Shown here: positions 1,304 to 40,246 of the stretch, piece after piece | Numbering within the stretch: position 1 is the stretch's first letter | Layout of the letters: each line of letters opens with the position of its first letter | Source of the DNA: an uncultured Clostridiaceae bacterium | GTDB taxonomy: Bacteria > Bacillota > Clostridia > Monoglobales > Firm-18 | Length of the DNA: 40,391 nucleotides | Reading direction: 5' to 3' | NCBI GenBank assembly: GCA_964455565.1 | Contig: CAYVWT010000002.1 | Coordinates: forward strand, 1 to 40,391 | The notes under the pieces: generated by a model | Seen by the model: the letters and a program-made list of their open reading frames with translations, nothing else | The model's database searches: none | What the model was told of the DNA's origin: nothing | Made by a program: the position numbers and the translations under genes

Positions 1304-3214
<1,911 letters not shown>

Positions 3215-6407: not shown

Positions 6408-7736
6408 TTAACTTTCATCACTTTTTATATTTTTTATCAAATCATTAATGCTGTGCATAGTTGTTAAGTCCTTTTCCATTTCGTCTTTAATCTTTTTTAT
6501 GCCATACATAACTGTTGAATGGTCACGCCCACCAAATTCCTTGCCTATATCAGGCAGAGAAAGCTGTGTTAACTCTCTGCAAATATACATTGCAACCTGA
6601 CGAGGATAAGCACATTCTTTATCACGCTTTTTGCTCTTTATAACATCGTCAGTAAGGTTAAAGTGACGTTCTACTTCTTTAATTATGTAATCTGCATCAA
6701 TTCTGCGCTTGTGTGATGATGAAAAATAATCCTTTAAAATTCTTGTTGCTGTTTCAATGTCAATATTTTTTTTAGATATATCACTAAAAGCAATAATTGT
6801 TCTTATTGCTCCTTCAAGCTCACGAATGTTGGATTTAACCTGCTTAGCAACAAGGTTAAAAATTTCATCTGAAAGCTCAATGGGAAATTCTGATGTCTGA
6901 GCCTTTGAATGAAGAATAGCAAGGCGAGTTTCAAAATCTGGCGGTTGAAGATCGGTCATTAAGCCACCAGAAAGACGTGTTCTAAGGCGTTCTTCAAGTG
7001 GATATATATCCTTTGGGGGACGGTCACTTGTAAGCATAATTTGTTTATTTGAATTAATTAATTCATTAAATGTATGAAAAAATTCCTCCTGTGTTCCTTC
7101 TTTTCCTGCAAAAAATTGAATATCATCAATTAAAAGAACATCAATTGTGCGAAATTTATTGCGAAAATCCCTATTAGTTTCATTACGAATAGAATCTACA
7201 AAGCTATTCATAAATTTTTCAGCAGTAACATAAAGAACAGTTTTTGTTGAATCTTTATCTAAAATAGCATTACCAACAGCGTGAAGTAGATGTGTCTTTC
7301 CAAGCCCACTCCCACCATATAGAAGTAGAGGGTTGTAAGAATCTCTAACAGGTCCCTGAGCTACTGCGTAAGCTGCGGCACAGGCAAATTCATTATTACT
7401 GCCCACAATAAAATTGTCAAAGGTAAATTTAGAATTTAAAACACTTTCAGTTCTTGTGTTTTTAGGTGTGATTTGTGGCTCGCCAGCCCTTTCGGACGCA
7501 ACAACAACCTCGGCATTTGTCACATCAGTAGAAACCTGCATAAGGGCATCTTTTATTTTATCTAAGTATATATCTAACATACTTCTATAAATCTCGTGGT
7601 TAACTTCAAGCACAAGAGTATTATCTTTTATATAGGCTGGTGTTACCTTAACGAATGCAGTGTTAAAGCCAGTTTGCGAAACACTTTTTCGTATAAATGG
7701 CAAGGCAGCTTCCCATATCTCAGAAGCAATTTTCAT
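6408..7736 (-). CDS. dnaA: Chromosomal replication initiator DnaA
   Basis: FTFDNF, YNPL..YGGSGLGKTHL, LLIDDIQF, QEEFFHTFN, NIRELEGA, GGRDHSTV. Confidence 0.98.
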   Translation of the reverse strand: MKIASEIWEAALPFIRKSVSQTGFNTAFVKVTPAYIKDNTLVLEVNHEIYRSMLDIYLDKIKDALMQVSTDVTNAEVVVASERAGEPQITPKNTRTESVLNSKFTFDNFIVGSNNEFACAAAYAVAQGPVRDSYNPLLLYGGSGLGKTHLLHAVGNAILDKDSTKTVLYVTAEKFMNSFVDSIRNETNRDFRNKFRTIDVLLIDDIQFFAGKEGTQEEFFHTFNELINSNKQIMLTSDRPPKDIYPLEERLRTRLSGGLMTDLQPPDFETRLAILHSKAQTSEFPIELSDEIFNLVAKQVKSNIRELEGAIRTIIAFSDISKKNIDIETATRILKDYFSSSHKRRIDADYIIKEVERHFNLTDDVIKSKKRDKECAYPRQVAMYICRELTQLSLPDIGKEFGGRDHSTVMYGIKKIKDEMEKDLTTMHSINDLIKNIKSDES

Positions 7737-8374: not shown

Positions 8375-10372
8375 TTGTTGAAAAAAGAAATTTATGATGA
8401 TAGTTCTATTTCCTCATTAAAAGGTGCGGATAGAGTTCGTGCAAGGCCTGGGGTAATTTTCGGCTCGGATGGGCTTGAGGGTTGCTGTCATTCAGTATTT
8501 GAGATACTTTCTAATTCAATAGATGAGGCTCGTGAGGGGTATGGTAAGCTTATTGAGGTTACCTATTTTCGTGATGGCTCAATACAAATTGATGATTATG
8601 GTCGTGGTGTTCCACTTGGTTATAATGAAAAAGAGGAACGCTATAATTGGGAACTTATTTTCTGCGAAATGTACGCAGGGGGCAAGTATAACAATAATTC
8701 TGGCAACAATTATGAGTTTTCGCTTGGGCTTAATGGTCTTGGTGCCTGTGCAACGCAGTATACCTCTGAATATATGGATGTTGAGGTTAGGCGTGATGGA
8801 AATATTTTCAAGCTATACTTTGAAAAAGGTGAAAATATAGGTGGGCTACAAACAGAGCCAACTCGTTTTAAGGCTACTGGCACTAAAATAAAATGGAGGC
8901 CAGATTTAGACGTTTTTACCGACATAGATATTCCCTTGGAATATTTTTTAAGCGTACTTAAAAAGCAGGCTGTTGTTAATGCAGGGCTTACCTTTAAGCT
9001 GTTTGTGGAAAAAGAGGATAAGTCCTTTGAAGAACAGGATTTCGTTTATGAAAATGGTATTATTGATTATGTAAAAGAGGTTGGCGGTCAAAAATCTATT
9101 ACAGATGTGCAATATTTCGAGGCAGAAAGAACAGGTCGTGACCGTGAGGACAAGCCAGATTATAAGGTTAAATTATCCGTTGCTTTTTGCTTTAATAATG
9201 AAGCAAATATGACGGAATATTACCATAATTCAAGCTTTTTAGAGCATGGTGGCTCGCCTGATAAGGCTGTTAAAAGTGCTTTTGTTTCGGTTGTTGACCA
9301 ATATATAAAGGCAAATGGTAAATATAATAAAAATGAAAATAAGGTTTTATTTACAGATATTTCTGACTGCTTATGCCTTGTTAGTAATTCATTTTCTACT
9401 GTAACAAGCTATGAAAATCAGACTAAAAAATCCATCACAAATAAGTTTATTCAAGAGGCAATGACGGATTTTCTGCGCCAGCAATTAGAGATTTATTTTA
9501 TTGAAAACAAGGTTGAGGCAGATAAAATTGCCGAGCAAGTTTTGATAAACAAAAGAAGCCGAGAAAGTGCAGAAAAAGCCAGAATAAATGTTAAAAAAAT
9601 GCTAAGTGGCAACACCGATATGATGTCACGAGTGCAAAAATTCGTAGATTGCAGAACGAAGGATTTAAAAAGGCGTGAGATATATATAGTTGAGGGTGAT
9701 TCAGCGCTTGGCTCGTGTAAATTAGGCAGGGACGCAGAATTTCAAGCTATTATCCCTGTTAGAGGTAAAATTTTGAACTGCTTAAAGGCAGATTATGATA
9801 AGATATTTAAAAATGAAATAATCCTTGATTTAGTAAGGGTTTTGGGCTGTGGGGTTGAGGCAAAGTCCAAGCATAATAAGGATTTTAACACCTTTGAACT
9901 TGAAAATTTGCGTTGGAGTAAAATTATAATATGTACCGATGCCGATGTTGACGGATACCAAATAAGAACCCTTATTTTAACTATGTTTTATCGCTTAATG
10001 CCAAGTCTTATCGAGGCTGGCTTTGTGTATATTGCAGAGTCCCCACTTTTTGAAATTACAACAAAGGAAAAGAATAAGGACAAGGTTCAATTTGCTTTTA
10101 CTGAGGCAGAAAAAGCAAAAATTATAACAAAGCTTGATGATAAAAAATATACCATTCAAAGAAGTAAAGGACTTGGTGAAAACCAACCTGAAATGATGTG
10201 GGAAACAACAATGAACCCAGAAACAAGGCGGCTAATTAGGGTAATGCCAGAGGAAGACAGCGCATTAGCGCAGGCTAAATTTGAGCTATTGCTTGGCGAT
10301 AATTTAGCAGGCAGAAAAGAACATATAGCTAAAAATGGAGCGAAATATATTGATTTAACGGATGTAAGTTAA
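8375..10372 (+). CDS. Second type IIA topoisomerase B subunit (GyrB/ParE-like)
   Basis: GHKL ATPase (EILSNSIDE, DYGRGVP, YAGGKY, GLNGLG) and TOPRIM (EGDSA, PVRGK, DADVDG, SKGLGE); clearly divergent from the gyrB at 1304-3214. Confidence 0.92.
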   Translation: MLKKEIYDDSSISSLKGADRVRARPGVIFGSDGLEGCCHSVFEILSNSIDEAREGYGKLIEVTYFRDGSIQIDDYGRGVPLGYNEKEERYNWELIFCEMYAGGKYNNNSGNNYEFSLGLNGLGACATQYTSEYMDVEVRRDGNIFKLYFEKGENIGGLQTEPTRFKATGTKIKWRPDLDVFTDIDIPLEYFLSVLKKQAVVNAGLTFKLFVEKEDKSFEEQDFVYENGIIDYVKEVGGQKSITDVQYFEAERTGRDREDKPDYKVKLSVAFCFNNEANMTEYYHNSSFLEHGGSPDKAVKSAFVSVVDQYIKANGKYNKNENKVLFTDISDCLCLVSNSFSTVTSYENQTKKSITNKFIQEAMTDFLRQQLEIYFIENKVEADKIAEQVLINKRSRESAEKARINVKKMLSGNTDMMSRVQKFVDCRTKDLKRREIYIVEGDSALGSCKLGRDAEFQAIIPVRGKILNCLKADYDKIFKNEIILDLVRVLGCGVEAKSKHNKDFNTFELENLRWSKIIICTDADVDGYQIRTLILTMFYRLMPSLIEAGFVYIAESPLFEITTKEKNKDKVQFAFTEAEKAKIITKLDDKKYTIQRSKGLGENQPEMMWETTMNPETRRLIRVMPEEDSALAQAKFELLLGDNLAGRKEHIAKNGAKYIDLTDVS

Positions 10373-16993: not shown

Positions 16994-17023
16994 GCACCTA
17001 TTTTTTATTGTTAGGGTATACTA
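16994..17023 (+). promoter_or_regulatory. Candidate SigF-type promoter of pdaA
   Basis: -10 GGGTATACTA fits GGnnAnAHTR; 15-nt spacer; weak -35 (GCACC vs GYATA). Confidence 0.4.
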
Positions 17024-17052
17024 AACAAATAAAAAATAAAGGGGTGCAAAAA

Positions 17053-17901
17053 ATGAAAAAATTATTTTTAATATTATTAGCGTTTCCACTTGTTATTATT
17101 ACTTCGTGTGTTAACCCAAATAATCCTATGATAGAGCAAAACCCAGATACGAATTATCCAAGTGACCAAAAAGTTATAATGCCCTCGCCTATGCAGGTGG
17201 TTCAGGGAACGGGCTATGATAATAAAACAATCTCTTGGGGCTTTAAAAAAATTAAAAATGCACAGCCCGAGGTTCCGCAGGGTTGGAAGGATATTTTGTC
17301 AAGGTTTGATGGTTATTATATAGGTGATACTTCAAAAAAAGTTCTGTATCTAACATTTGATGAGGGCTATGAAAATGGCTATACAGGCAAGATTTTAGAT
17401 ACCCTAAAAACAACATCAACGCCTGCTGCATTTTTCGTTACAGGCCCATATTTACAGCAAGAGACGGCGCTAATAAAAAGAATGGTTGACGAAGGGCATA
17501 TAGTTGGAAACCATACTATAAATCACCCAAGTATGCCATCCGTTACTGATGATGAGAAGCTAAAAAAAGAGCTAACTGGGTTAGATGAAAAGTTTTTTGC
17601 CCTAACACAAAAAAATATGAAATTTGTAAGGCCACCAATGGGTGAATTTAGCGAAAGAACGCTGGCACTTTCAAAAAATTTAGGTTATAAGACTATATTT
17701 TGGAGCAGTGCGTATGTGGATTGGAATGTTAAAGCCCAAAAATGTGCAGATTATGCATTTGAGCAGGTAACCAGTCAATTCCATAATGGGTGCATTATTC
17801 TACTTCACGCAGTATCCGAGGATAATATGGAAGCACTCCCAGAAATAATTAAAGATGCACGGTCAAAGGGATATACGTTTGAAAGCTTGAATGAATTATA
17901 A
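17053..17901 (+). CDS. pdaA: PdaA-like polysaccharide (N-acetylmuramic acid) deacetylase, lipoprotein (start reassigned to ATG 17053)
   Basis: YLTFDEGYENGYT..ILD.LK, GH.VGNHT.NHP, RPP.G.FSER, AYVDW, ILLHAVS.DN; signal peptide ending ITSC; AGGGGTG RBS. Confidence 0.87.
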   Translation: MKKLFLILLAFPLVIITSCVNPNNPMIEQNPDTNYPSDQKVIMPSPMQVVQGTGYDNKTISWGFKKIKNAQPEVPQGWKDILSRFDGYYIGDTSKKVLYLTFDEGYENGYTGKILDTLKTTSTPAAFFVTGPYLQQETALIKRMVDEGHIVGNHTINHPSMPSVTDDEKLKKELTGLDEKFFALTQKNMKFVRPPMGEFSERTLALSKNLGYKTIFWSSAYVDWNVKAQKCADYAFEQVTSQFHNGCIILLHAVSEDNMEALPEIIKDARSKGYTFESLNEL

Positions 17902-17940: not shown

Positions 17941-17970
17941 GCATATTAAATGTCGAAAAAGGTTAATTTA
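17941..17970 (+). promoter_or_regulatory. SigF-type promoter of spoIVB with a Spo0A box in its spacer
   Basis: GCATA-15 nt-GGTTAATTTA; TGTCGAA at 17951-17957. Confidence 0.65.
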
Positions 17971-18005: not shown

Positions 18006-19169
18006 TTGGTGATAAGAAAAAATAGAAGGCTTTTGTTTGTTTTAACTGTTGCGACAATTTTTTCAATTCAAATATATAACTTAGCTCCACAGCATTTAAC
18101 CTTGCGTGATGGTGAAAATTATCCACTTCCACCATTTATAAGTGGTTTAAGGGATAACTCGGATACACAGCTAAAATTGTTTGGATTTGTTCCAATAAAA
18201 ACTGTCGAGGTAGATATTGTACCTAAAATTGATTTAATTCCATGCGGGAACACTGTTGGGGTTAAGATAAATATTGATGGAGTAATGATTGTTGGATTTT
18301 CTGAAATTCGTAGTATAGATGGAAAACGTCATAACCCTGCAAAGGACGGAGCGCTAAAAATTGGTGATGTTATAAAGAAAATAAATGGAAATTTTGTAGA
18401 AAATATTGACAATTTGTCAAAAATAGTAGAAAATGGTAATGGAGAGGATTTATCTGTTGAAGTTGCAAGGGGAAACGCCACTCAAACATTCCATATTAAG
18501 CCCGAATTAGCAAGAGAGGATAATATCTATAAAATAGGTGCATTTGTAAGGGATAGCACCTCTGGTATAGGAACTTTAACCTTTATAGAGCCAAAAAGCA
18601 AGGTTTTTGCCGCACTTGGGCACCCAATAGCCGATTCAGACACAGGTGGCATTATTACAGTTGGCAATGGTGAAATTCTTCGTTCTAATATTGTAGGTGT
18701 GCAAAAAGGTGCAAGAGGCTCACCTGGAGAGCTAAAAGGTGTTTTTAGCATAAGTCAAAAAATTGGCGATATTCTGCAAAATAACGAGGCAGGCATATAT
18801 GGAAAAATGAAAATTGTAAATTCCGAAAATAAACCAATGCCTATGGCTATGCGTTCACAAATTAAAGTTGGCAAGGCGTATATACTTTCAAATATTGAAA
18901 GCGATAAGGTTGGAAAATATGATATAGAAATCCAAAAGGTAATGCGAAATTCTTACGATAATAAAGGGATGGTAATTAAGGTAACAGACGAACGCCTTAT
19001 AAAAAAGACAGGTGGAATAGTGCAAGGTATGAGTGGTAGTCCTATAATACAAAATGAAAATATCGTTGGTGCTGTAACACATGTATTTGTAAATGACCCA
19101 ACAAAAGGATACGGAACATTTATCGAGTTAATGCTTGATAAAGCTATTAATATCGACAAAAGTGAGTAA
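18006..19169 (+). CDS. spoIVB: SpoIVB peptidase (PDZ + S55)
   Basis: KLFG..PIK.V, RDSTSGIGTLTF, FAALGHPI.D.DT, G.PGELKG, TGGIVQGMSGSPI, GAVTHVFVNDPT.GYG; upstream of spo0A. Confidence 0.96.
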   Translation: MVIRKNRRLLFVLTVATIFSIQIYNLAPQHLTLRDGENYPLPPFISGLRDNSDTQLKLFGFVPIKTVEVDIVPKIDLIPCGNTVGVKINIDGVMIVGFSEIRSIDGKRHNPAKDGALKIGDVIKKINGNFVENIDNLSKIVENGNGEDLSVEVARGNATQTFHIKPELAREDNIYKIGAFVRDSTSGIGTLTFIEPKSKVFAALGHPIADSDTGGIITVGNGEILRSNIVGVQKGARGSPGELKGVFSISQKIGDILQNNEAGIYGKMKIVNSENKPMPMAMRSQIKVGKAYILSNIESDKVGKYDIEIQKVMRNSYDNKGMVIKVTDERLIKKTGGIVQGMSGSPIIQNENIVGAVTHVFVNDPTKGYGTFIELMLDKAINIDKSE

Positions 19170-19174
19170 TAATG

Positions 19175-19218
19175 CTAATTTTCGTTTAAAATAGATAGCT
19201 ATTTTAAACGAAAATTAG
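19175..19218. repeat. Perfect 20-bp-arm hairpin between spoIVB and spo0A (terminator or palindromic element)
   Basis: CTAATTTTCGTTTAAAATAG-atag-CTATTTTAAACGAAAATTAG. Confidence 0.8.
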
Positions 19219-19267: not shown

Positions 19268-19296
19268 TTGTAAAATATTACCAACTAATGTATAAT
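19268..19296 (+). promoter_or_regulatory. SigA-type promoter of spo0A
   Basis: TTGTAA-17-TATAAT; GAGGAGG RBS before ATG 19339. Confidence 0.65.
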
Positions 19297-19338
19297 ATTG
19301 ACAGTTACTAAATACACATTACGAGGAGGACTTTTGAA

Positions 19339-20115
19339 ATGGGGAAAATAAGGTTAGCGTTGGCAGATGACAACAGAGAATTTTGTTCATTAGTTGTGGA
19401 TTATATATCTATGATTGATGACATTGAGCTTGTAGGTATAGCTAATGATGGACTTGTTGCGCTTGAGTTGGTTGAGCAAAAACAGCCAGATGTTTTGATT
19501 TTGGATAATGTAATGCCACAGCTTGATGGACTTGGAGTTCTTGCGAGGCTTCAAAATGTAACAGCTTTTAAAAGGCCAAAGGTTATAACAATAACCGCAA
19601 GCCTCACAGAGGACTTTATGATAAATGCATATAAATTAGGTGCAGATTATCAAATGTCTCGCAGAATTGACATCGAGGAAATAATTAAGCGTGTGCGTAT
19701 GATTATGGAAAAACCAAAACATCGCATTCCACAAAATCCTTCAATAAACAAAGGCACAATTGATGTTGAAACAACTGTAACATCAATAATACATGAGGTA
19801 GGCGTTCCTGCACATATTAAAGGATATGTTTATTTGCGTGAAGCAATAATGCTTGTGCTTAAAGATACAGATATGGTAAATTCCATTACCAAACAGCTAT
19901 ACCCATCTGTTGCAAAGACATATAATACCTCTGCAAGCAGGGTAGAGCGTGCAATTCGCCATGCGATTGAGGTTGCGTGGGATAGAGGCGACACAGATAC
20001 ACTAAATAAAATTTTCGGCTTTACTATAAACCAAGCAAAAGGCAAGCCAACAAATAGTGAATTTATAGCAATGATTGCAGATAAATTAAGATTAGAAATG
20101 AAATACGCAAATTAA
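19339..20115 (+). CDS. spo0A: Sporulation master regulator Spo0A (atypical receiver C-terminus)
   Basis: ADDNRE, D56 in LILD..MP.LDG; output domain [47 protein letters not shown]. Confidence 0.97.
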
Positions 20116-20124
20116 AACTATACT

Positions 20125-20146
20125 GGACTATCCAAATGGATAGTCC
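20125..20146. terminator. Terminator hairpin between the convergent spo0A and cof genes
   Basis: GGACTATCCA-aa-TGGATAGTCC followed by a T-rich tract. Confidence 0.75.
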
Positions 20147-22669: not shown

Positions 22670-23542
22670 TTAGTCCCACTCCTTAATGTCTTTTAATATA
22701 TCATAAAGGGCAGTATAATTATTATACCTACTATCCCCTATTAAGCCCTGCTCTAATGCGCTTAAAACAGCGCAATCCTTTGGTTTTCCACCAATATGCA
22801 CGCAATCATCAAAGCGACAATTGTTGTTATAAATTTCAAATTCATTAAACAAATTTTTAAGCTCATTTGCCTTTACATTAGTTATTTCAAGCAGGCTAAA
22901 CCCTGGTGTGTCCATAACAAATCCGCCGCCACTAAGGGGCATAAGCTCAATATGGCGTGTTGTGTGCTTTCCACGTTCAATTTTACTGACTATACCTGTT
23001 TCAAGGCTAAAACCAAGGCAGTTTAATATGCTGGATTTACCAACCCCAGAATTTCCTGCGAATGCTGTGATTTTGCCCCTTATCAACTTTTTAAGGTCTT
23101 CTACTCCCTCACCAGTCGAGGCGCAAATGGGTGTAACCCTGTAACCAGCTAAAGAGTACATTTCTATAATTTTATCTGGATCTAAAAGGTCCGTCTTGTT
23201 AACTGCAATAATAACATCAATATTGCCCTTTTCGGCGGTAACTATTAGCTTGTCTATCATAAAAAAATCTGGATTAGGGCTTGTTGCGGCGATAACAATA
23301 ACAACCGTATCAACATTTGCAACAGCAGGGCGAATAAGGTAGGTTGTTCGTGGGGAAATCTCCTCTAACGCACCCTCAAATGGGTTTTCATTAACAATTG
23401 TAATTTCAACCTTGTCGCCAACCATTGGTGTAATTTTTTGCTTGCGCATTTTGCCACGAGCATGACATTCTACAATGCCACGCTCGGTAGAAACATAATA
23501 AAAACCACCAATGCCCTTAGTAATTACGCCGGATAGCCTCAT
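22670..23542 (-). CDS. rsgA: Ribosome small subunit-dependent GTPase A
   Basis: RP.VANVD, NKTDL, GNSGVGKSS, RGKHTTR, DTPGF, CRF.DC.H......C. Confidence 0.96.
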   Translation of the reverse strand: MRLSGVITKGIGGFYYVSTERGIVECHARGKMRKQKITPMVGDKVEITIVNENPFEGALEEISPRTTYLIRPAVANVDTVVIVIAATSPNPDFFMIDKLIVTAEKGNIDVIIAVNKTDLLDPDKIIEMYSLAGYRVTPICASTGEGVEDLKKLIRGKITAFAGNSGVGKSSILNCLGFSLETGIVSKIERGKHTTRHIELMPLSGGGFVMDTPGFSLLEITNVKANELKNLFNEFEIYNNNCRFDDCVHIGGKPKDCAVLSALEQGLIGDSRYNNYTALYDILKDIKEWD

Positions 23543-25476
23543 AGAGTCACCGTTTTAGAGGCATATAAAGCGCCATTAAAGTAGATTTCAAGATTTACTG
23601 CCCCATTACCTGTGATATTTATATTAAATGCTTTTTCATCTTTGCTATGTGTCATATTGTGTATTGTTTTTCCGTCCTGCAAAATTTTAATTGTGGTTTT
23701 TTCTTGTTCCTGCGGAATATTAATAGTCATTGACTTTGTTTTAATGATGGTAGCTGGCTTTACTGGTGTCGGCGTTTGTTGGATTATTTGCGTATTGCCT
23801 GTGCTTGCTGATGTGCCAGAGCTTACAGTTAGGTCAATTTCGGTATATTCGTCTACACTTGTTCCACGGGAAACACTTTGAGTTAGGACAACATTTTTCG
23901 GTTTATCACTCGGAACATCTGTAATTTTGCCCTCACGAAGCTTGTTATCAGAAATAACACGCCTTGCCTGTTGAACGTCCTCACCAATTAAATTAGGCAT
24001 AGTAATTTGGTTCTTCCCTGCACCTTGGCTTACATAAATTGTAATTTCCTCGCCTGCTTTTAATGTATAGCCTGCTTGGGGAACTGTTCGAGTTATAACG
24101 CCCTCTGTAACGGTGTCGCTTGATTCTTTGATTTCCTTAACATTAAGCCCTAATTTTTCAATATCAAGCCTTGCATCAGTTGCAATTTTATTAACATAAT
24201 TATCAATAGTAATGTCTTTTATTCCTGCACTAACTACAACATTAATTTCAATTGGAGTTTTAATCATCTTGCCTGTTTTCGGGTCCTGCGAGATTATAAC
24301 ACCCTTTTCATATTCCTTTGAGGGAACCTGTTGCACCATATTTATAGTAATCTTTTTATTTTTATAGGTATCTTTTATATCATCATATTTTTGCCCTACT
24401 AAATCAGGAACAGGCATTTCAACACTTTTAGAGCTACTAAATGCACCAGGGTAAACAACGGCAATCGTGCCAAAAATAAGTATGCTTACAATAACGACAG
24501 AGGTTATAATAGCCCAAATAACAGCTTTTTTATCCGAAGCAGTTTTAGGTTTTTTCTCTTTTTCTGGTTGCTCACCTACCTCGGCAATATTAATGGCAGG
24601 AATTTTGCGTGTAGAAAAATTGTTAGCTAATTCTGGCACTTCATCTGGAACAATATCTGGTTGTTTTTGTGCAGCGTAAAGGTCATCAAGCAACCCAGCA
24701 GAGGACTGATAGCGCAAAGATTGTTCCTTGCTCATTGCTTTTAATATAATTGCCTCTACTGCAAGTGGTATAGCAATATTATATTCCTTTGGTGAAACTG
24801 GCTTTTCTTGCAGGTGTTTAATTGCAATAGAAACAGGGCTATCACTCTCGAAAGGAACTCTACCTGTAAGCATTTCATACATAACAACACCAACAGAGTA
24901 AATGTCGCTTTTTTCGTCAGTATAGCCACCTCGTGCCTGCTCGGGTGAAAAATAATGCACCGAGCCAATAGTATTGCCACCCATAGTAACAGTAGCAGAT
25001 GTAGCAGCACGAGCAATGCCAAAATCGGTAACCTTTAAAACACCCTCAGGGGTAAGTATTATATTATGAGGCTTAATATCACGATGAACTATGTGGTTTT
25101 TATGTGCGTGTTCTAAGCCCTTACAAATTTGGATTGAAAATTCAACAGCCTGCTGCCAGGATAATTTTTTGTTTGCATCGATATAATCCTTTAAGGTTTG
25201 CCCCTCAACGTATTCCATAATAATATATTGCAAACCGTCCTCAGAACCAACATCATAAATGCTAACAATATTTGGGTGTGAAAGTGCAGCGGCAGCCTGT
25301 GCCTCTGTATTAAAGCGTGCAAGAAATTCTTGGTCCTTTGCAAGCTCAGGGCGAAGCACCTTAACTGCAACATTACGGTTAAGCAGTCTGCAATGTGCCC
25401 TAAAAACTCTTGCCATACCACCGTTTCCAATTTCCTCGAGTATTTCATATCTATTGCCTAATATTTTACCAACCAA
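23539..25476 (-). CDS. prkC: PASTA-domain Ser/Thr kinase PrkC/PknB
   Basis: IG.GGMA.V, VAVK, HRDIKPHN, DFGIA, GSVHYFSPEQ; TM helix; three PASTA repeats. Confidence 0.96.
   Translation of the reverse strand: MVGKILGNRYEILEEIGNGGMARVFRAHCRLLNRNVAVKVLRPELAKDQEFLARFNTEAQAAAALSHPNIVSIYDVGSEDGLQYIIMEYVEGQTLKDYIDANKKLSWQQAVEFSIQICKGLEHAHKNHIVHRDIKPHNIILTPEGVLKVTDFGIARAATSATVTMGGNTIGSVHYFSPEQARGGYTDEKSDIYSVGVVMYEMLTGRVPFESDSPVSIAIKHLQEKPVSPKEYNIAIPLAVEAIILKAMSKEQSLRYQSSAGLLDDLYAAQKQPDIVPDEVPELANNFSTRKIPAINIAEVGEQPEKEKKPKTASDKKAVIWAIITSVVIVSILIFGTIAVVYPGAFSSSKSVEMPVPDLVGQKYDDIKDTYKNKKITINMVQQVPSKEYEKGVIISQDPKTGKMIKTPIEINVVVSAGIKDITIDNYVNKIATDARLDIEKLGLNVKEIKESSDTVTEGVITRTVPQAGYTLKAGEEITIYVSQGAGKNQITMPNLIGEDVQQARRVISDNKLREGKITDVPSDKPKNVVLTQSVSRGTSVDEYTEIDLTVSSGTSASTGNTQIIQQTPTPVKPATIIKTKSMTINIPQEQEKTTIKILQDGKTIHNMTHSKDEKAFNINITGNGAVNLEIYFNGALYASKTVTL
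23860..23875. promoter_or_regulatory. Candidate parS site inside prkC
   Basis: TGTTCCACGGGAAACA, 1 mismatch to TGTTNCACGTGAAACA. Confidence 0.6.
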
Positions 25477-25498
25477 TTATCATCACCCCTTAAATTTA

Positions 25499-26200
25499 CT
25501 AAATTTTAATCAATATTGCAGTAATATTATCCATACCACCGTTTTCGTTTGCAAGGTTTATAAGCTCTTTAACTGCCGTGTCTATATCATTATTTTTAAT
25601 AACCTGTGTAATTATTTCATCCTCAACAAAGGTAGTAAGCCCGTCGGTGCAAAGCAAAAAGTAATCTCCCTTTTTGAACACAATATGAGTTATGTCAACC
25701 TCGATATTCGGCTCTGTGCCAATAGCACGGGTAATAAGGTTTTTCTGTGGGTGCGTTTTTGCCTCGTTAGGTGTAATTTTGCCGAGGTCTACAAGCTGTT
25801 GAACAATAGAATGGTCGGTTGTTACCTGCCTAAAACCAAGCTCGCCAAGGTGATACGCCCTGCTATCGCCAACATTTGCAATGGTTGCTGTTCTGCCCTC
25901 AAAATAACAAACAATACCAGTCGTGCCCATTCCCAAAAGGTTTTTGGTGTGAATCGACATATCATAAACAGTTTTATTTGCAGCATATATTGCGTTTTTT
26001 AGGCAAACATCAACGTTTGTTGGCTTGCAATCGATGTTATCTTTTATAACATCAACAGCAGTTTTGCTGGCAATCTCTCCACCATTATGACCGCCCATTC
26101 CGTCTGCAATAATGCACCATTTGGCGCGTTCATCTATATAAAAATTGTCTTGATTTGTTTCCCTTACCTTGCCCTTGTCTGTAAGCCCTCGTATTTGCAA
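25499..26200 (-). CDS. prpC: PP2C-type Ser/Thr phosphatase PrpC/Stp1 (likely start TTG 26200)
   Basis: TDKGKVR..NQD, ADGMGGH..GE.AS, GMGTT, NVGDSR.Y, LLCTDGL, GG.DNIT. Confidence 0.95.
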   Translation of the reverse strand: MQIRGLTDKGKVRETNQDNFYIDERAKWCIIADGMGGHNGGEIASKTAVDVIKDNIDCKPTNVDVCLKNAIYAANKTVYDMSIHTKNLLGMGTTGIVCYFEGRTATIANVGDSRAYHLGELGFRQVTTDHSIVQQLVDLGKITPNEAKTHPQKNLITRAIGTEPNIEVDITHIVFKKGDYFLLCTDGLTTFVEDEIITQVIKNNDIDTAVKELINLANENGGMDNITAILIKI

Positions 26201-26243
26201 CCCAATCACCACCTTAGTTCCTTAAATATGTTAATTTTCGTTT

Positions 26244-38427: not shown

Positions 38428-38455
38428 ATTATATCACAAAAATAGGATTAGCGAA
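38428..38455 (-). promoter_or_regulatory. Probable SigA promoter of the yicC operon, overlapping the MTase 3' end
   Basis: Minus TTCGCT-16-TATAAT with TGn; the MTase stop codon lies within the -10 hexamer. Confidence 0.55.
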
Positions 38456-40246
38456 AGTATTTTTTTGAATTGTAGAATGTATTTCTTTAGTTTCTAATTC
38501 ATTTAGGTTATACAAACCCATTACTATTTTATCAATTTCCTCATAAATAGTCGGTGCTATTGTATTTACTTTATCTATTATTTTCTGCTGAGTGGCAGAA
38601 TCTACAACAGGAATTGGTATGCCCTCAAGGTGAGAGCGCAGAATTTTTATAGAATTATATTTAAGCGAAAAATAAAACTGTGTAGCCCTTGAATTTAAAA
38701 CCGCTAAAATATATTTTATATCTAAGCCATCTATTTTTGGTATCAAAATATTTGCGCTGTTAAGTGACAGGGTTTGTGAATTATCATACGCAAAAATTAA
38801 TCTATCACATATAAAACGGTATAAAAGCTTTTCTTTCGCCCTGTACATCTCGGTGGGCGCAACCTGTTGGAAATTATTTGGCTGGAATTCTATATAATTA
38901 TTTGGTGTTTTAAACGAATATTTATAAATATCGCTTCCTTTTAAGATTATTTCTGAATTTTTTCGTTTTTCATTATGAATAAATTTAGAATTATCGCCTG
39001 TTACAATTCCAAGCGCAAAATCTGCATTGTTTTTAAGGTAAGCTACGGTCTTTATATTTTCAATTTTTTGTATTATTTCATATTGTGCATCAGTTATATT
39101 AAAATTGATATTTTCCTTGGAAAATTTGCGATTAGTCTTTATTTCAAAGGTTGTTTTTTCATTGTGAATTATAATGCCCTTTGTTGCAAAAGAATTATTT
39201 TTGATTAAAGTTAGGGTTATTGCAGGAGTGTACACCCCACTAAACACATTTCCCCAATATTTTATAGACTGTATTTTGCAGTTTGCAATTATATATTCCC
39301 TAATTTGGTTATGTATTTTCACATTTAAAATTGCCTCTGGAAGTATAAAGCTAATCGTGCCATTATCCCTGCAAATATCTATTGCCTTTTCTAAAAATAA
39401 GCAAAAGGATTCAATCTGCTTGGCTTTTTTAGGCTGAATTAAATTAGCCCCCCAAGGTGGGTTGCCAATTATTACGTCATACTTATTTTTTGCAATTAAG
39501 CTATCCTCACAGCGAAAATTTTTATATAGTAATTCTATATTATTAGTTTTAGAAACTAAAAGCATATTTATGCGAGTTAGCATAATGCTAACCTCGTCAA
39601 TGTCCGTGCCATAAATATTTTCTATCGCTATATTTTTATGTAAATAAGCATTGATTAAAAAATTACCAGTGCCACAGCATGGGTCAATTATTGCTTTTGA
39701 TGTAGGTACTTGCAAATTTTCTATCGTATCCCTCACAACGCTAAAAGGGGTGTAATAAACTCCGTTAGATTTCCTGCTATTAAGGGTTTGAAGTGACATA
39801 TACAGCGCTCCTAAAAAGTCTTGTCCTGCTGTGAATTCAACATCAAAAATAAGTGCTGGCTTTATTTCGTCATTAATAGAATTATTGCCTAATAAATCAT
39901 CAATTAGCGGATTTTTTATTAAACCAACACTACGAAGCAATTTTAAGGCATATTCGGCTAAAATAACCCTCTCGTAACCCTTTATAGAATTGCTGATTAT
40001 GTTGCATATGGTTTTGTAGCTATCATCATTAACATAGCCCTTTGGCGCAAAAACACCTGAAATGTGTGTTTTATTTCGTCTGCTTTTTAATTTATCTATA
40101 TTATTATTTTGTATATCAATTAATAATTTGTGTATAGCCTGCTTTGAGAAAGGAGTGGCTAAACGACCACTTTTAACCCAATTGCGACCAGTCGCAGTCG
40201 AAATAGATAAAATTTTGCACGCTTCATTTAAGTTTATATTATCCAA
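38429..40246 (-). CDS. Orphan N6-adenine DNA methyltransferase (gamma/TaqI-like) with N-terminal HTH
   Basis: G.YYTP, IDPCCGTGNFL (motif I), G.DID, IGNPPW (motif IV), C-terminal TaqI-like specificity region; N-terminal LNEACKILSISTATGRNWVKSGRL; AAGGGGG RBS + TTG. Confidence 0.88.
   Translation of the reverse strand: MDNINLNEACKILSISTATGRNWVKSGRLATPFSKQAIHKLLIDIQNNNIDKLKSRRNKTHISGVFAPKGYVNDDSYKTICNIISNSIKGYERVILAEYALKLLRSVGLIKNPLIDDLLGNNSINDEIKPALIFDVEFTAGQDFLGALYMSLQTLNSRKSNGVYYTPFSVVRDTIENLQVPTSKAIIDPCCGTGNFLINAYLHKNIAIENIYGTDIDEVSIMLTRINMLLVSKTNNIELLYKNFRCEDSLIAKNKYDVIIGNPPWGANLIQPKKAKQIESFCLFLEKAIDICRDNGTISFILPEAILNVKIHNQIREYIIANCKIQSIKYWGNVFSGVYTPAITLTLIKNNSFATKGIIIHNEKTTFEIKTNRKFSKENINFNITDAQYEIIQKIENIKTVAYLKNNADFALGIVTGDNSKFIHNEKRKNSEIILKGSDIYKYSFKTPNNYIEFQPNNFQQVAPTEMYRAKEKLLYRFICDRLIFAYDNSQTLSLNSANILIPKIDGLDIKYILAVLNSRATQFYFSLKYNSIKILRSHLEGIPIPVVDSATQQKIIDKVNTIAPTIYEEIDKIVMGLYNLNELETKEIHSTIQKNTFANPIFVI

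Follow-up and report, generated by a model that had tools for sequence, protein, structure and literature searches.

The 40,391-nucleotide stretch of DNA analysed here (contig CAYVWT010000002.1 of assembly GCA_964455565.1, from an uncultured Clostridiaceae bacterium; hereafter the window) carries a gene for the response regulator Spo0A. This protein is regarded as the master switch of endospore formation and as its universal marker, and its receiver domain is assumed to follow the textbook pattern of the Bacillus and Clostridioides proteins. In the window's protein the Lys-Pro pair of the receiver is replaced by Arg-Arg. The gene occupies positions 19339-20115 of the forward strand (+) as an intact open reading frame (ORF) of 258 amino acids plus stop. 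Its product matches PF00072 at residues 8-120 and PF08769 at residues 147-250 (E-value 2.4e-46), and it scores 336.6 bits against the Spo0A equivalog model TIGR02875, for which the cut-off is 200. The upstream neighbour is spoIVB (18006-19169, +; TIGR02860, 411.6 bits, cut-off 305), giving the usual spoIVB-spo0A synteny, and a pdaA-type spore cortex deacetylase gene lies upstream of spo0A at 17008-17901. By architecture, score, synteny and genomic company, the ORF at 19339-20115 is a Spo0A orthologue. The 98%-complete genome to which the window belongs contains a single Spo0A_C match, at spo0A itself, and a second, canonical spo0A, which the first-pass annotation of this DNA had proposed looking for, is not present in it.

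The receiver domain (residues 1-125; 19339-19713, +) has the (βα)5 fold, as judged from PF00072 and an AlphaFold2 model. We mapped its residues through HMMER alignments to two solved Spo0A receivers, 9phz_E from B. subtilis and 1dz3_A from G. stearothermophilus, in which the query segment containing R108-R109 aligns to LGASYFILKPFD. The first-pass annotation, made from the letters alone, had claimed that D10, D11, D56 and T86 are retained, that K108-P109 has become R108-R109, that TAFGQE reads TASLTE and DIIMP reads DNVMP, and that no single-base error can account for the pair; the alignments, which set TASLTED against TAFGQED, bear out each of these claims. The acidic metal-binding pair D10-D11 (19366-19371, +) is kept, as is the phospho-acceptor D56, which is followed by N57, a residue specific to the clade described below and replaced elsewhere by Ile, Val, Leu or Met (19504-19509, +). 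T86 and A87 open the remodelled β4-α4 loop T-A-S-L-T-E (19594-19611, +), which is TAFGQE in B. subtilis. The codons at 19657-19668 are TCT CGC AGA ATT, encoding S-R-R-I, and S107-R108-R109 (19657-19665, +) thus stand where other Spo0A proteins have L-K-P; starting from Lys or Pro codons, R108 and R109 each take two or more base substitutions. Two further changes lie beyond those first highlighted, namely L107 to S and, at Q105 (19651-19653, +), loss of the β5 aromatic (F105) from the usual Y/F switch site three residues before the lysine (K-3).

In terms of the quintet that defines a canonical receiver (DD, D, T and K), the acidic pair, the phospho-acceptor and the threonine are all present, and the lysine after β5 with its cis-proline is missing (R108-R109). 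The protein does not qualify as an aspartate-less receiver, since D56 is present. The AlphaFold2 model (mean predicted local distance difference test score, pLDDT, 82.7) places strands at residues 4-9, 29-35, 52-56, 81-86 and 104-107 with helices between them, so that R108 comes directly after β5. The modelled receiver superposes on phosphorylated Spo0A-N (1qmp) with a root-mean-square deviation (rmsd) of 1.5-1.6 Å and a TM score of 0.92-0.93. A register shift making K109 the true lysine is ruled out here, the window's protein having R-R and no lysine in the loop; most clade members read R-K (46/69).

The DNA-binding and activation domain, Spo0A_C (residues 147-250; 19777-20088, +), matches PF08769 and aligns to 1lq1_A with an E-value of 4.4e-49. 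It had been called fully conserved. Highly conserved is the better description: the recognition-helix segment is identical to that of 1lq1 and 1fc3, but identity over the domain is 63-66%, with a modelled rmsd of 1.1-1.8 Å. Measured against the DNA-binding domain, the receiver has diverged about as much within the clade as beyond it (2.64 vs 2.11).

To place the Arg-Arg pair among its relatives we took the best 69 of 120 listed homologues, at 58% identity or more and picked by rank rather than by motif, as the clade sample, with the remaining 51 as the outside group. Position 108 in the clade is R in 64 sequences, K in three, C in one and H in one; position 109 is K in 46, R in 18 and another residue in five, and is never P. 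Outside the clade 49/51 homologues have K-P. The neighbouring changes follow the same division: N57 is found in 64/69 clade members vs 1/51 outside, S107 in 68/69 vs 2/51, and an aromatic residue (Y/F) at 105 in 0/69 vs 47/51. The pocket itself is retained in the clade, with D10 in 68 sequences, D11 in 65, D56 in 68, T or S at 86 in 67 and A or G at 87 in 63, while P60 (D+4) and C16 in helix α1 are present in 69/69 and G64 (D+8) is invariant in a 19-sequence alignment. Named sources within the clade include Firmicutes bacterium ADurb.Bin193 (P0010) and an uncultured Clostridiaceae bacterium (L052).

A background set was drawn from the matches listed for two C-terminal peptide patterns common to all Spo0A, and comprised 80 Spo0A genes from Bacilli and Clostridia, mostly distant and including one clade member (L052). 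K-P occurs in 78 of them, R-K in one (the clade member) and M-P in one, and an aromatic Y/F occupies position 105 in 79. The M-P case is Clostridium nigeriense strain B187 (L058; YYVVMPFD), another strain of which reads K-P (L057), and it is possibly a strain-level loss-of-function mutation. The six other receivers of the window's genome all have K-P, and the identical-protein cluster of the window's Spo0A holds five member sequences. Because R108 is found in 64/69 of the closest homologues and P109 in 0/69, vs K-P in 78/80 diverse Spo0A proteins, the Arg-Arg pair is not a chance occurrence.

The same variant was followed through a sample of 121 genomes of the order, in families designated f1 (the window's own) to f7. 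Main Spo0A copies in f1 carry it: twelve sequences read S-R-[KR] at positions 107-109, genus g9 reads S-K-T, and two long-branch sequences read N-R-G and N-K-E. Among the other families f4 has S-H-R and f2 has A-K-E, and K-P is found in the main copies of f5, in f3, in f7 and in 33/33 sequences (32 genomes) of f6; in G018, a genome of this sister family, Spo0A matches the Ructibacterium gallinarum DSM 107454 protein exactly. With 67 rows, a quick IQ-TREE tree joins f1 and f4 in one clade (SH-aLRT 91), sister to f5 and f6, although this clade also draws in two very long f5 paralogue branches, which leaves its exact limits unsure. The distribution suggests that the proline was lost first and that the change from Lys to Arg came afterwards in most of f1. 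The homologue counts, the family genomes and the tree agree in making R-[KR] a clade marker, a question that the first-pass annotation had raised, and by these comparisons R108-R109 is a lineage trait and no error.

Two or three full-length Spo0A copies per genome are found in G013 (C5, C15, C63), G003 (C7, C4), G025 (C10, C12), G045 and G031 (loci L032-L037). The extra copies group together as a single subclade within that of the family, and they too have no K-P, reading S-R-N, S-R-K or S-K-N.

A receiver of this kind could in principle also arise if sporulation were on its way out in the lineage and the gene were decaying or no longer functional, or through a mistake in sequencing or assembly. 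P0002, which at 78% identity is the closest relative in the database, carries N10, N11 and C108, and in one family genome, G033, neither Spo0A nor SpoIVA was detected, but that genome is only 84% complete. The window's gene is intact, with a ribosome-binding site, GAGGAGG, 9 nt 5' of its ATG (19323-19329, +) and, 3' of it, a terminator-like hairpin with a T-run (20125-20146, +; 9-bp stem, 5 GC). Its protein belongs to the five-member identical cluster, its motif is shared by 64/69 relatives and its DNA-binding domain is highly conserved. The genome likewise gives no sign of the general loss of sporulation genes that the first-pass annotation had named as a possible refutation, the eleven gene families looked at being intact and above their cut-offs. 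These include SpoIIE (627.8 bits, cut-off 490.8), SpoIVA (783.7, cut-off 459.9), sigma E (395.5, cut-off 348.6), SpoVAD (475.7, cut-off 411.8), sigma H (320.1, cut-off 294.8) and SpoIIGA (217.6, cut-off 209.6); sigma G/K/F-like neighbours of sigE, five genes for small acid-soluble proteins (SASP), SpoIVB and PdaA are also intact. Across the family SpoIVA is found in 19/22 genomes and in 8/8 of the high-quality ones. We consider decay or error hardly credible, and the gene is predicted to encode a functional Spo0A of a likely spore-forming family of uncultured, gut-type Clostridia.

Given a retained phospho-acceptor, we looked at the genome's potential phosphodonors. It encodes six histidine kinases. 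Three have a partner regulator and a fourth is a hybrid fragment; the other two are a 587-aa protein with no regulator adjacent (C34:7707-9470) and a sensor-less cytoplasmic orphan of 265 aa with intact H, N, G1 and G2 boxes (G000 C25:11279-12076, -). The short orphan has a conserved C-terminal tail of about 35 aa and is encoded by frames of 256-390 aa (loci L132-L143). As a short frame it is present in 19/22 family genomes and 2/2 f5 genomes; in 91 f6 genomes no such short frame was found, the only two matches both lying in long frames. No Spo0B-type domain was found in the window's genome, nor any Spo0F-like protein, there being no stand-alone receiver among the seven receiver-domain genes. 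Since Spo0B- and Spo0F-like genes were not found, direct phosphorylation by orphan kinases, as in clostridia, is the expected route, and the 265-aa protein is a candidate Spo0A kinase. A complex prediction of the receiver (residues 1-125) with two copies of this kinase scored 0.30 against a mark of 0.32, in a run made without controls.

These data allow us to propose how the variant might work. Our preferred reading, to which we give a probability of about 0.6, is that the protein would still be phosphorylated, with arginine doing the job of the lysine, and that its β5 switch and partner surface have been remodelled. At the base of the family the β5 end of the receiver would have been rebuilt, through loss of the cis-proline, replacement of Lys108 by Arg, acquisition of a basic residue at 109, loss of the aromatic at 105 and fixation of Asn57 and Ser107. 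The chemistry of the phospho-acceptor would have been retained throughout (D10, D11, D56, T86, a small residue at T+1, P60 and G64). D56 would be phosphorylated directly by orphan histidine kinases, among which the 265-aa protein may be the one concerned, and in binding the phosphoryl group Arg108, perhaps together with the other basic residue, would replace the lysine. The remodelled surface may alter both the coupling of phosphorylation to dimerisation and the docking of partners such as kinases and phosphatases, and the lifetime of the phosphoryl group has probably changed as well.

Phosphoryl chemistry is favoured because conservation within the clade is 91-100% for DD, D56, T/S86, the small T+1 residue, P60 and G64. 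The sister family f6 is informative in this respect: among 17 further Spo0A sequences from 16 of its genomes, 12 have a non-acidic second residue in the acidic pair (DD2; A-D-x-D) and two have D56N, and all of them keep K-P. The conservation of the pocket in our clade is thus not simple inertia, as the order loses these residues when it can. Arginine preserves the positive charge at 108, and position 109 is basic in 64/69 clade members. The comparable receiver divergence in the two groups and the ordinary modelled fold, with its fit to phosphorylated Spo0A-N, count on the same side. According to the available text of a 2025 review on pseudo-receivers, phosphorylation can survive replacement of DD, T or K, and K often gives way to Arg; the same text describes the small T+1 residue, the Pro at D+4 and the Gly at D+8 as eroding once phosphorylation is given up (PMC12632262). 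For C. difficile Spo0A, P109A is described, in the part of the report available, as raising sporulation rather than abolishing it (10.1101/2022.02.07.479450), so Spo0A can work without the proline, whose loss may take away a negative input.

Several observations weigh against continued phosphorylation of this kind or qualify it. The aromatic residue through which Y-T coupling would operate is absent in 69/69 clade members. The CheY mutant K109R is reportedly phosphorylated but unable to signal, so that arginine may not support the switch. In that laboratory protein, too, Lys gives way to Arg where β5 ends, but as an engineered single change with Pro110 and Tyr106 kept; the variant described here occurs in nature, across the clade, and at least four more changes around the site are fixed along with it. 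Pocket residues are also lost in three lineages inside the clade, namely P0002, already mentioned, genus g9 (D11N) and P0068 (D11T, D56H). SpoIVA is still present in 3/4 g9 genomes, a hint that damage to the pocket need not end function. No cultured member is found among the family genomes, and spore formation is therefore predicted only. In C. difficile, according to the available part of the same report, Spo0A K108A lowers both sporulation and dimerisation (10.1101/2022.02.07.479450). Under a strict definition, by which any one of the five residues missing suffices, the receiver is a pseudo-receiver.

A true pseudo-receiver is the alternative that these points suggest, and we regard it as possible though rather unlikely. 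The protein would then not depend on aspartate phosphorylation; R-[KR] and the β5 surface would hold the receiver in its active state, or a partner or ligand would push it there, in a dimer-competent form, and entry into sporulation would be set by a protein partner or by the abundance of Spo0A (transcription, or dosage near oriC). The signalling defect reported for CheY K109R would fit such a receiver, as would the absence of both the Y-T aromatic and the cis-proline from 69/69 clade members and the position of spo0A relative to dnaA, described below. The sub-lineages with further DD losses keep an intact ORF, and g9 keeps SpoIVA as noted. In the available text of the review, a receiver with one of the five defining residues missing is a pseudo-receiver (PMC12632262). 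The pocket, together with T+1, P60 and G64, is nevertheless kept at 91-100% though sister lineages lose DD2 or D56, a pattern that would be difficult to account for if phosphoryl chemistry were not under selection. The change from Lys to Arg is moreover conservative, with the charge kept, and orphan kinases are present, one of them conserved across the family.

How often other Spo0A-like receivers depart from the quintet bears on the same alternative. We examined the best 150 Spo0A-like representatives of 50%-identity clusters (the P0121-P0268 set), a sample that over-weights divergent sequences and may include paralogues; 128 have a full receiver and 22 do not. The quintet (DD/D/T/K) is complete in 72/128 and at least one residue is missing in 56/128, a figure that favours the pseudo-receiver reading. 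The losses comprise DD2 only in 25 representatives, DD2 and D in eight, and D only in five; the class in which K alone is missing consists of five representatives plus the query and is confined to this clade. At position 56, 129 sequences include two with S and 14 with E, G, N or Y in place of D. By these counts, non-canonical Spo0A receivers are common in uncultured relatives. Five of the representatives (P0121, P0123, P0124, P0130, P0199) have no full receiver; in these proteins of 394-454 aa the Spo0A C-terminal domain is matched in three or four stretches, which look like tandem Spo0A_C repeats.

Control by Ser/Thr phosphorylation was another input suggested by the first-pass annotation. 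S107 or T86/T90 would be possible sites, and S107 is a mark of the clade (68/69 vs 2/51). A PknB-type Ser/Thr kinase with PASTA domains and a Stp1-type PP2C phosphatase are encoded at 23539-26212, the kinase gene 3.4 kb downstream of spo0A, and the kinase could act on such a site. The two genes form part of a priA-def-fmt-rsmB-rlmN-stp-pknB-rsgA-rpe-thiN block downstream of spo0A. The priA to rpe block with stp-pknB is a housekeeping arrangement, also found in B. subtilis, and in a conserved operon of this type proximity is uninformative. We see no sequence sign of a kinase docking site, and this form of control would leave the retained Asp pocket unexplained. The available text of the review does describe an atypical regulator, GlnR, that is Ser/Thr-phosphorylated (PMC12632262). 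We find no specific support for this input and judge it very improbable.

The position of spo0A adds one unexpected hint concerning gene dosage, which the first-pass annotation had also put forward as an input. In the window spo0A lies 11.6 kb from dnaA (6408-7736), and the low-coordinate side also carries dnaN, recF, gyrB, gyrA and soj/spo0J. In two relatives of the same family spo0A is 601 bp and 290 bp from dnaA (G035 C3:169251-172007 and G019 C28:16875-19239); six further genomes of the family have spo0A and dnaA on separate contigs. An origin-proximal spo0A could couple its dosage to replication, and to that extent the idea gains ground, but dosage control is not the most likely reading. 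The broader proposal, that sporulation initiation here uses a non-canonical input, fares similarly: the variant is real and clade-wide, there is no canonical paralogue and the sporulation genes are intact, but these findings do not make such an input necessary, nor is it the most likely reading.

A bolder version of these ideas, which we offer as tentative and think on balance improbable, would extend to the whole family and perhaps to much of the order. Spo0A would there be uncoupled from the Lys-dependent phospho-switch, and R-[KR], Asn57 and Ser107 would together make up a new means of activation: a phospho-Asp that is long-lived or coupled in another way and is fed by a sensor-less kinase, or else a phosphorylation-independent dimer. 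Sporulation would in that case be set mainly by the abundance of Spo0A or of the kinase, helped by origin-proximal dosage. On this view, with a quintet residue missing from 56/128 representatives, non-canonical control of Spo0A might be the norm among uncultured gut Clostridia.

Regulatory elements around the gene are less telling. A promoter-like TTGTAA-17-TATAAT lies 5' of spo0A (19268-19296, +), a consensus match alone at 10/12, and the count of promoter-like sites across the region is not above that in shuffled sequences. The first-pass annotation had pointed to 0A boxes nearby. The exact heptamer TGTCGAA does occur twice in the window, including once 5' of spoIVB (17951-17957, +), where it may be a chance match; 2.6 occurrences are expected by chance, and the 169-bp spacer upstream of spo0A contains no 0A box even when one mismatch is allowed. 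Since the heptamer is not enriched, we dropped 0A boxes as support for the reading. The gap between spoIVB and spo0A also contains an AT-rich, perfect-looking 44-nt hairpin (19175-19218; 20-bp stem, 4-nt loop), which is terminator-like on the minus strand only.

Elsewhere in the window, two GyrB-type genes flank dnaA. That at 1304-3214 scores as gyrB (1019 bits), and the second, at 8375-10372 (665 aa), reaches 502 bits vs 882, below every gyrB/parE cut-off; its predicted product is a divergent type IIA topoisomerase B subunit. At the window's end, 38429-40246 encodes a 605-aa adenine DNA methyltransferase like those of the Alw26I/Eco31I/Esp3I family (96 bits, below cut-off).

Atypical receivers are known from other sporulation regulators. 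The Streptomyces proteins WhiI and BldM are atypical sporulation response regulators whose receivers lack conserved pocket residues; they differ from the window's Spo0A in having an unrelated output family (NarL/FixJ), in serving an unrelated type of sporulation and in the residues that are missing. Compared with canonical Spo0A (B. subtilis, G. stearothermophilus and C. difficile; 1qmp, 1dz3, 9phz, 1fc3 and 1lq1), the window's protein shares the receiver and Spo0A_C domains, the synteny, D10, D11, D56, T86, A87, P60 and G64, an identical recognition helix and a modelled fold that superposes at 1.1-1.8 Å. It differs in K108R, P109R (and with it the cis-proline), F/Y105Q, I57N, L107S and TASLTE for TAFGQE. 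With the aspartate-less receivers, as described in the available text of PLoS Pathog 2015 (PMC4395418), it has in common an atypical receiver on an otherwise conserved regulator, but those lack the phospho-acceptor Asp, which is kept here and in 68/69 clade members. It also resembles the K-to-R class of pseudo-receivers (J Bacteriol 2025, PMC12632262), in which, as far as the available text goes, K is replaced by R and the K-3 aromatic is absent from many; unlike them it keeps DD, D, T, the small T+1 residue, Pro at D+4 and Gly at D+8, for which that text reports erosion. By its residues, then, the window's Spo0A is formally a K-to-R pseudo-receiver under the 2025 definition, yet with features that are usually lost.

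We found no published natural Spo0A without Lys-Pro in a literature search whose scope was open literature, with subscription journals and the supplements of PMC12632262 outside it. Neither the lysine nor atypical or multiple Spo0A is treated in the available part of Davidson et al. 2018 (PMC6136694), and the available text of the review PMC12632262, its supplementary tables being outside this scope, contains 0 occurrences of Spo0A.

Together these data point to a Spo0A subtype, spread through the family, in which an Arg-basic pair stands in for Lys-Pro, and to an apparently undescribed wider diversity of Spo0A active sites in uncultured Clostridia. A variant carried by a whole family is a natural experiment on the roles of the conserved lysine and the cis-proline, and it offers an example in which what the definition calls a pseudo-receiver may work as a receiver all the same. 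Of the Spo0A-like receivers in the closest cluster representatives, nearly half (56/128) are incomplete in some way. Inferring sporulation in metagenome-assembled genomes from the presence of spo0A thus hides diversity in how the switch is thrown.

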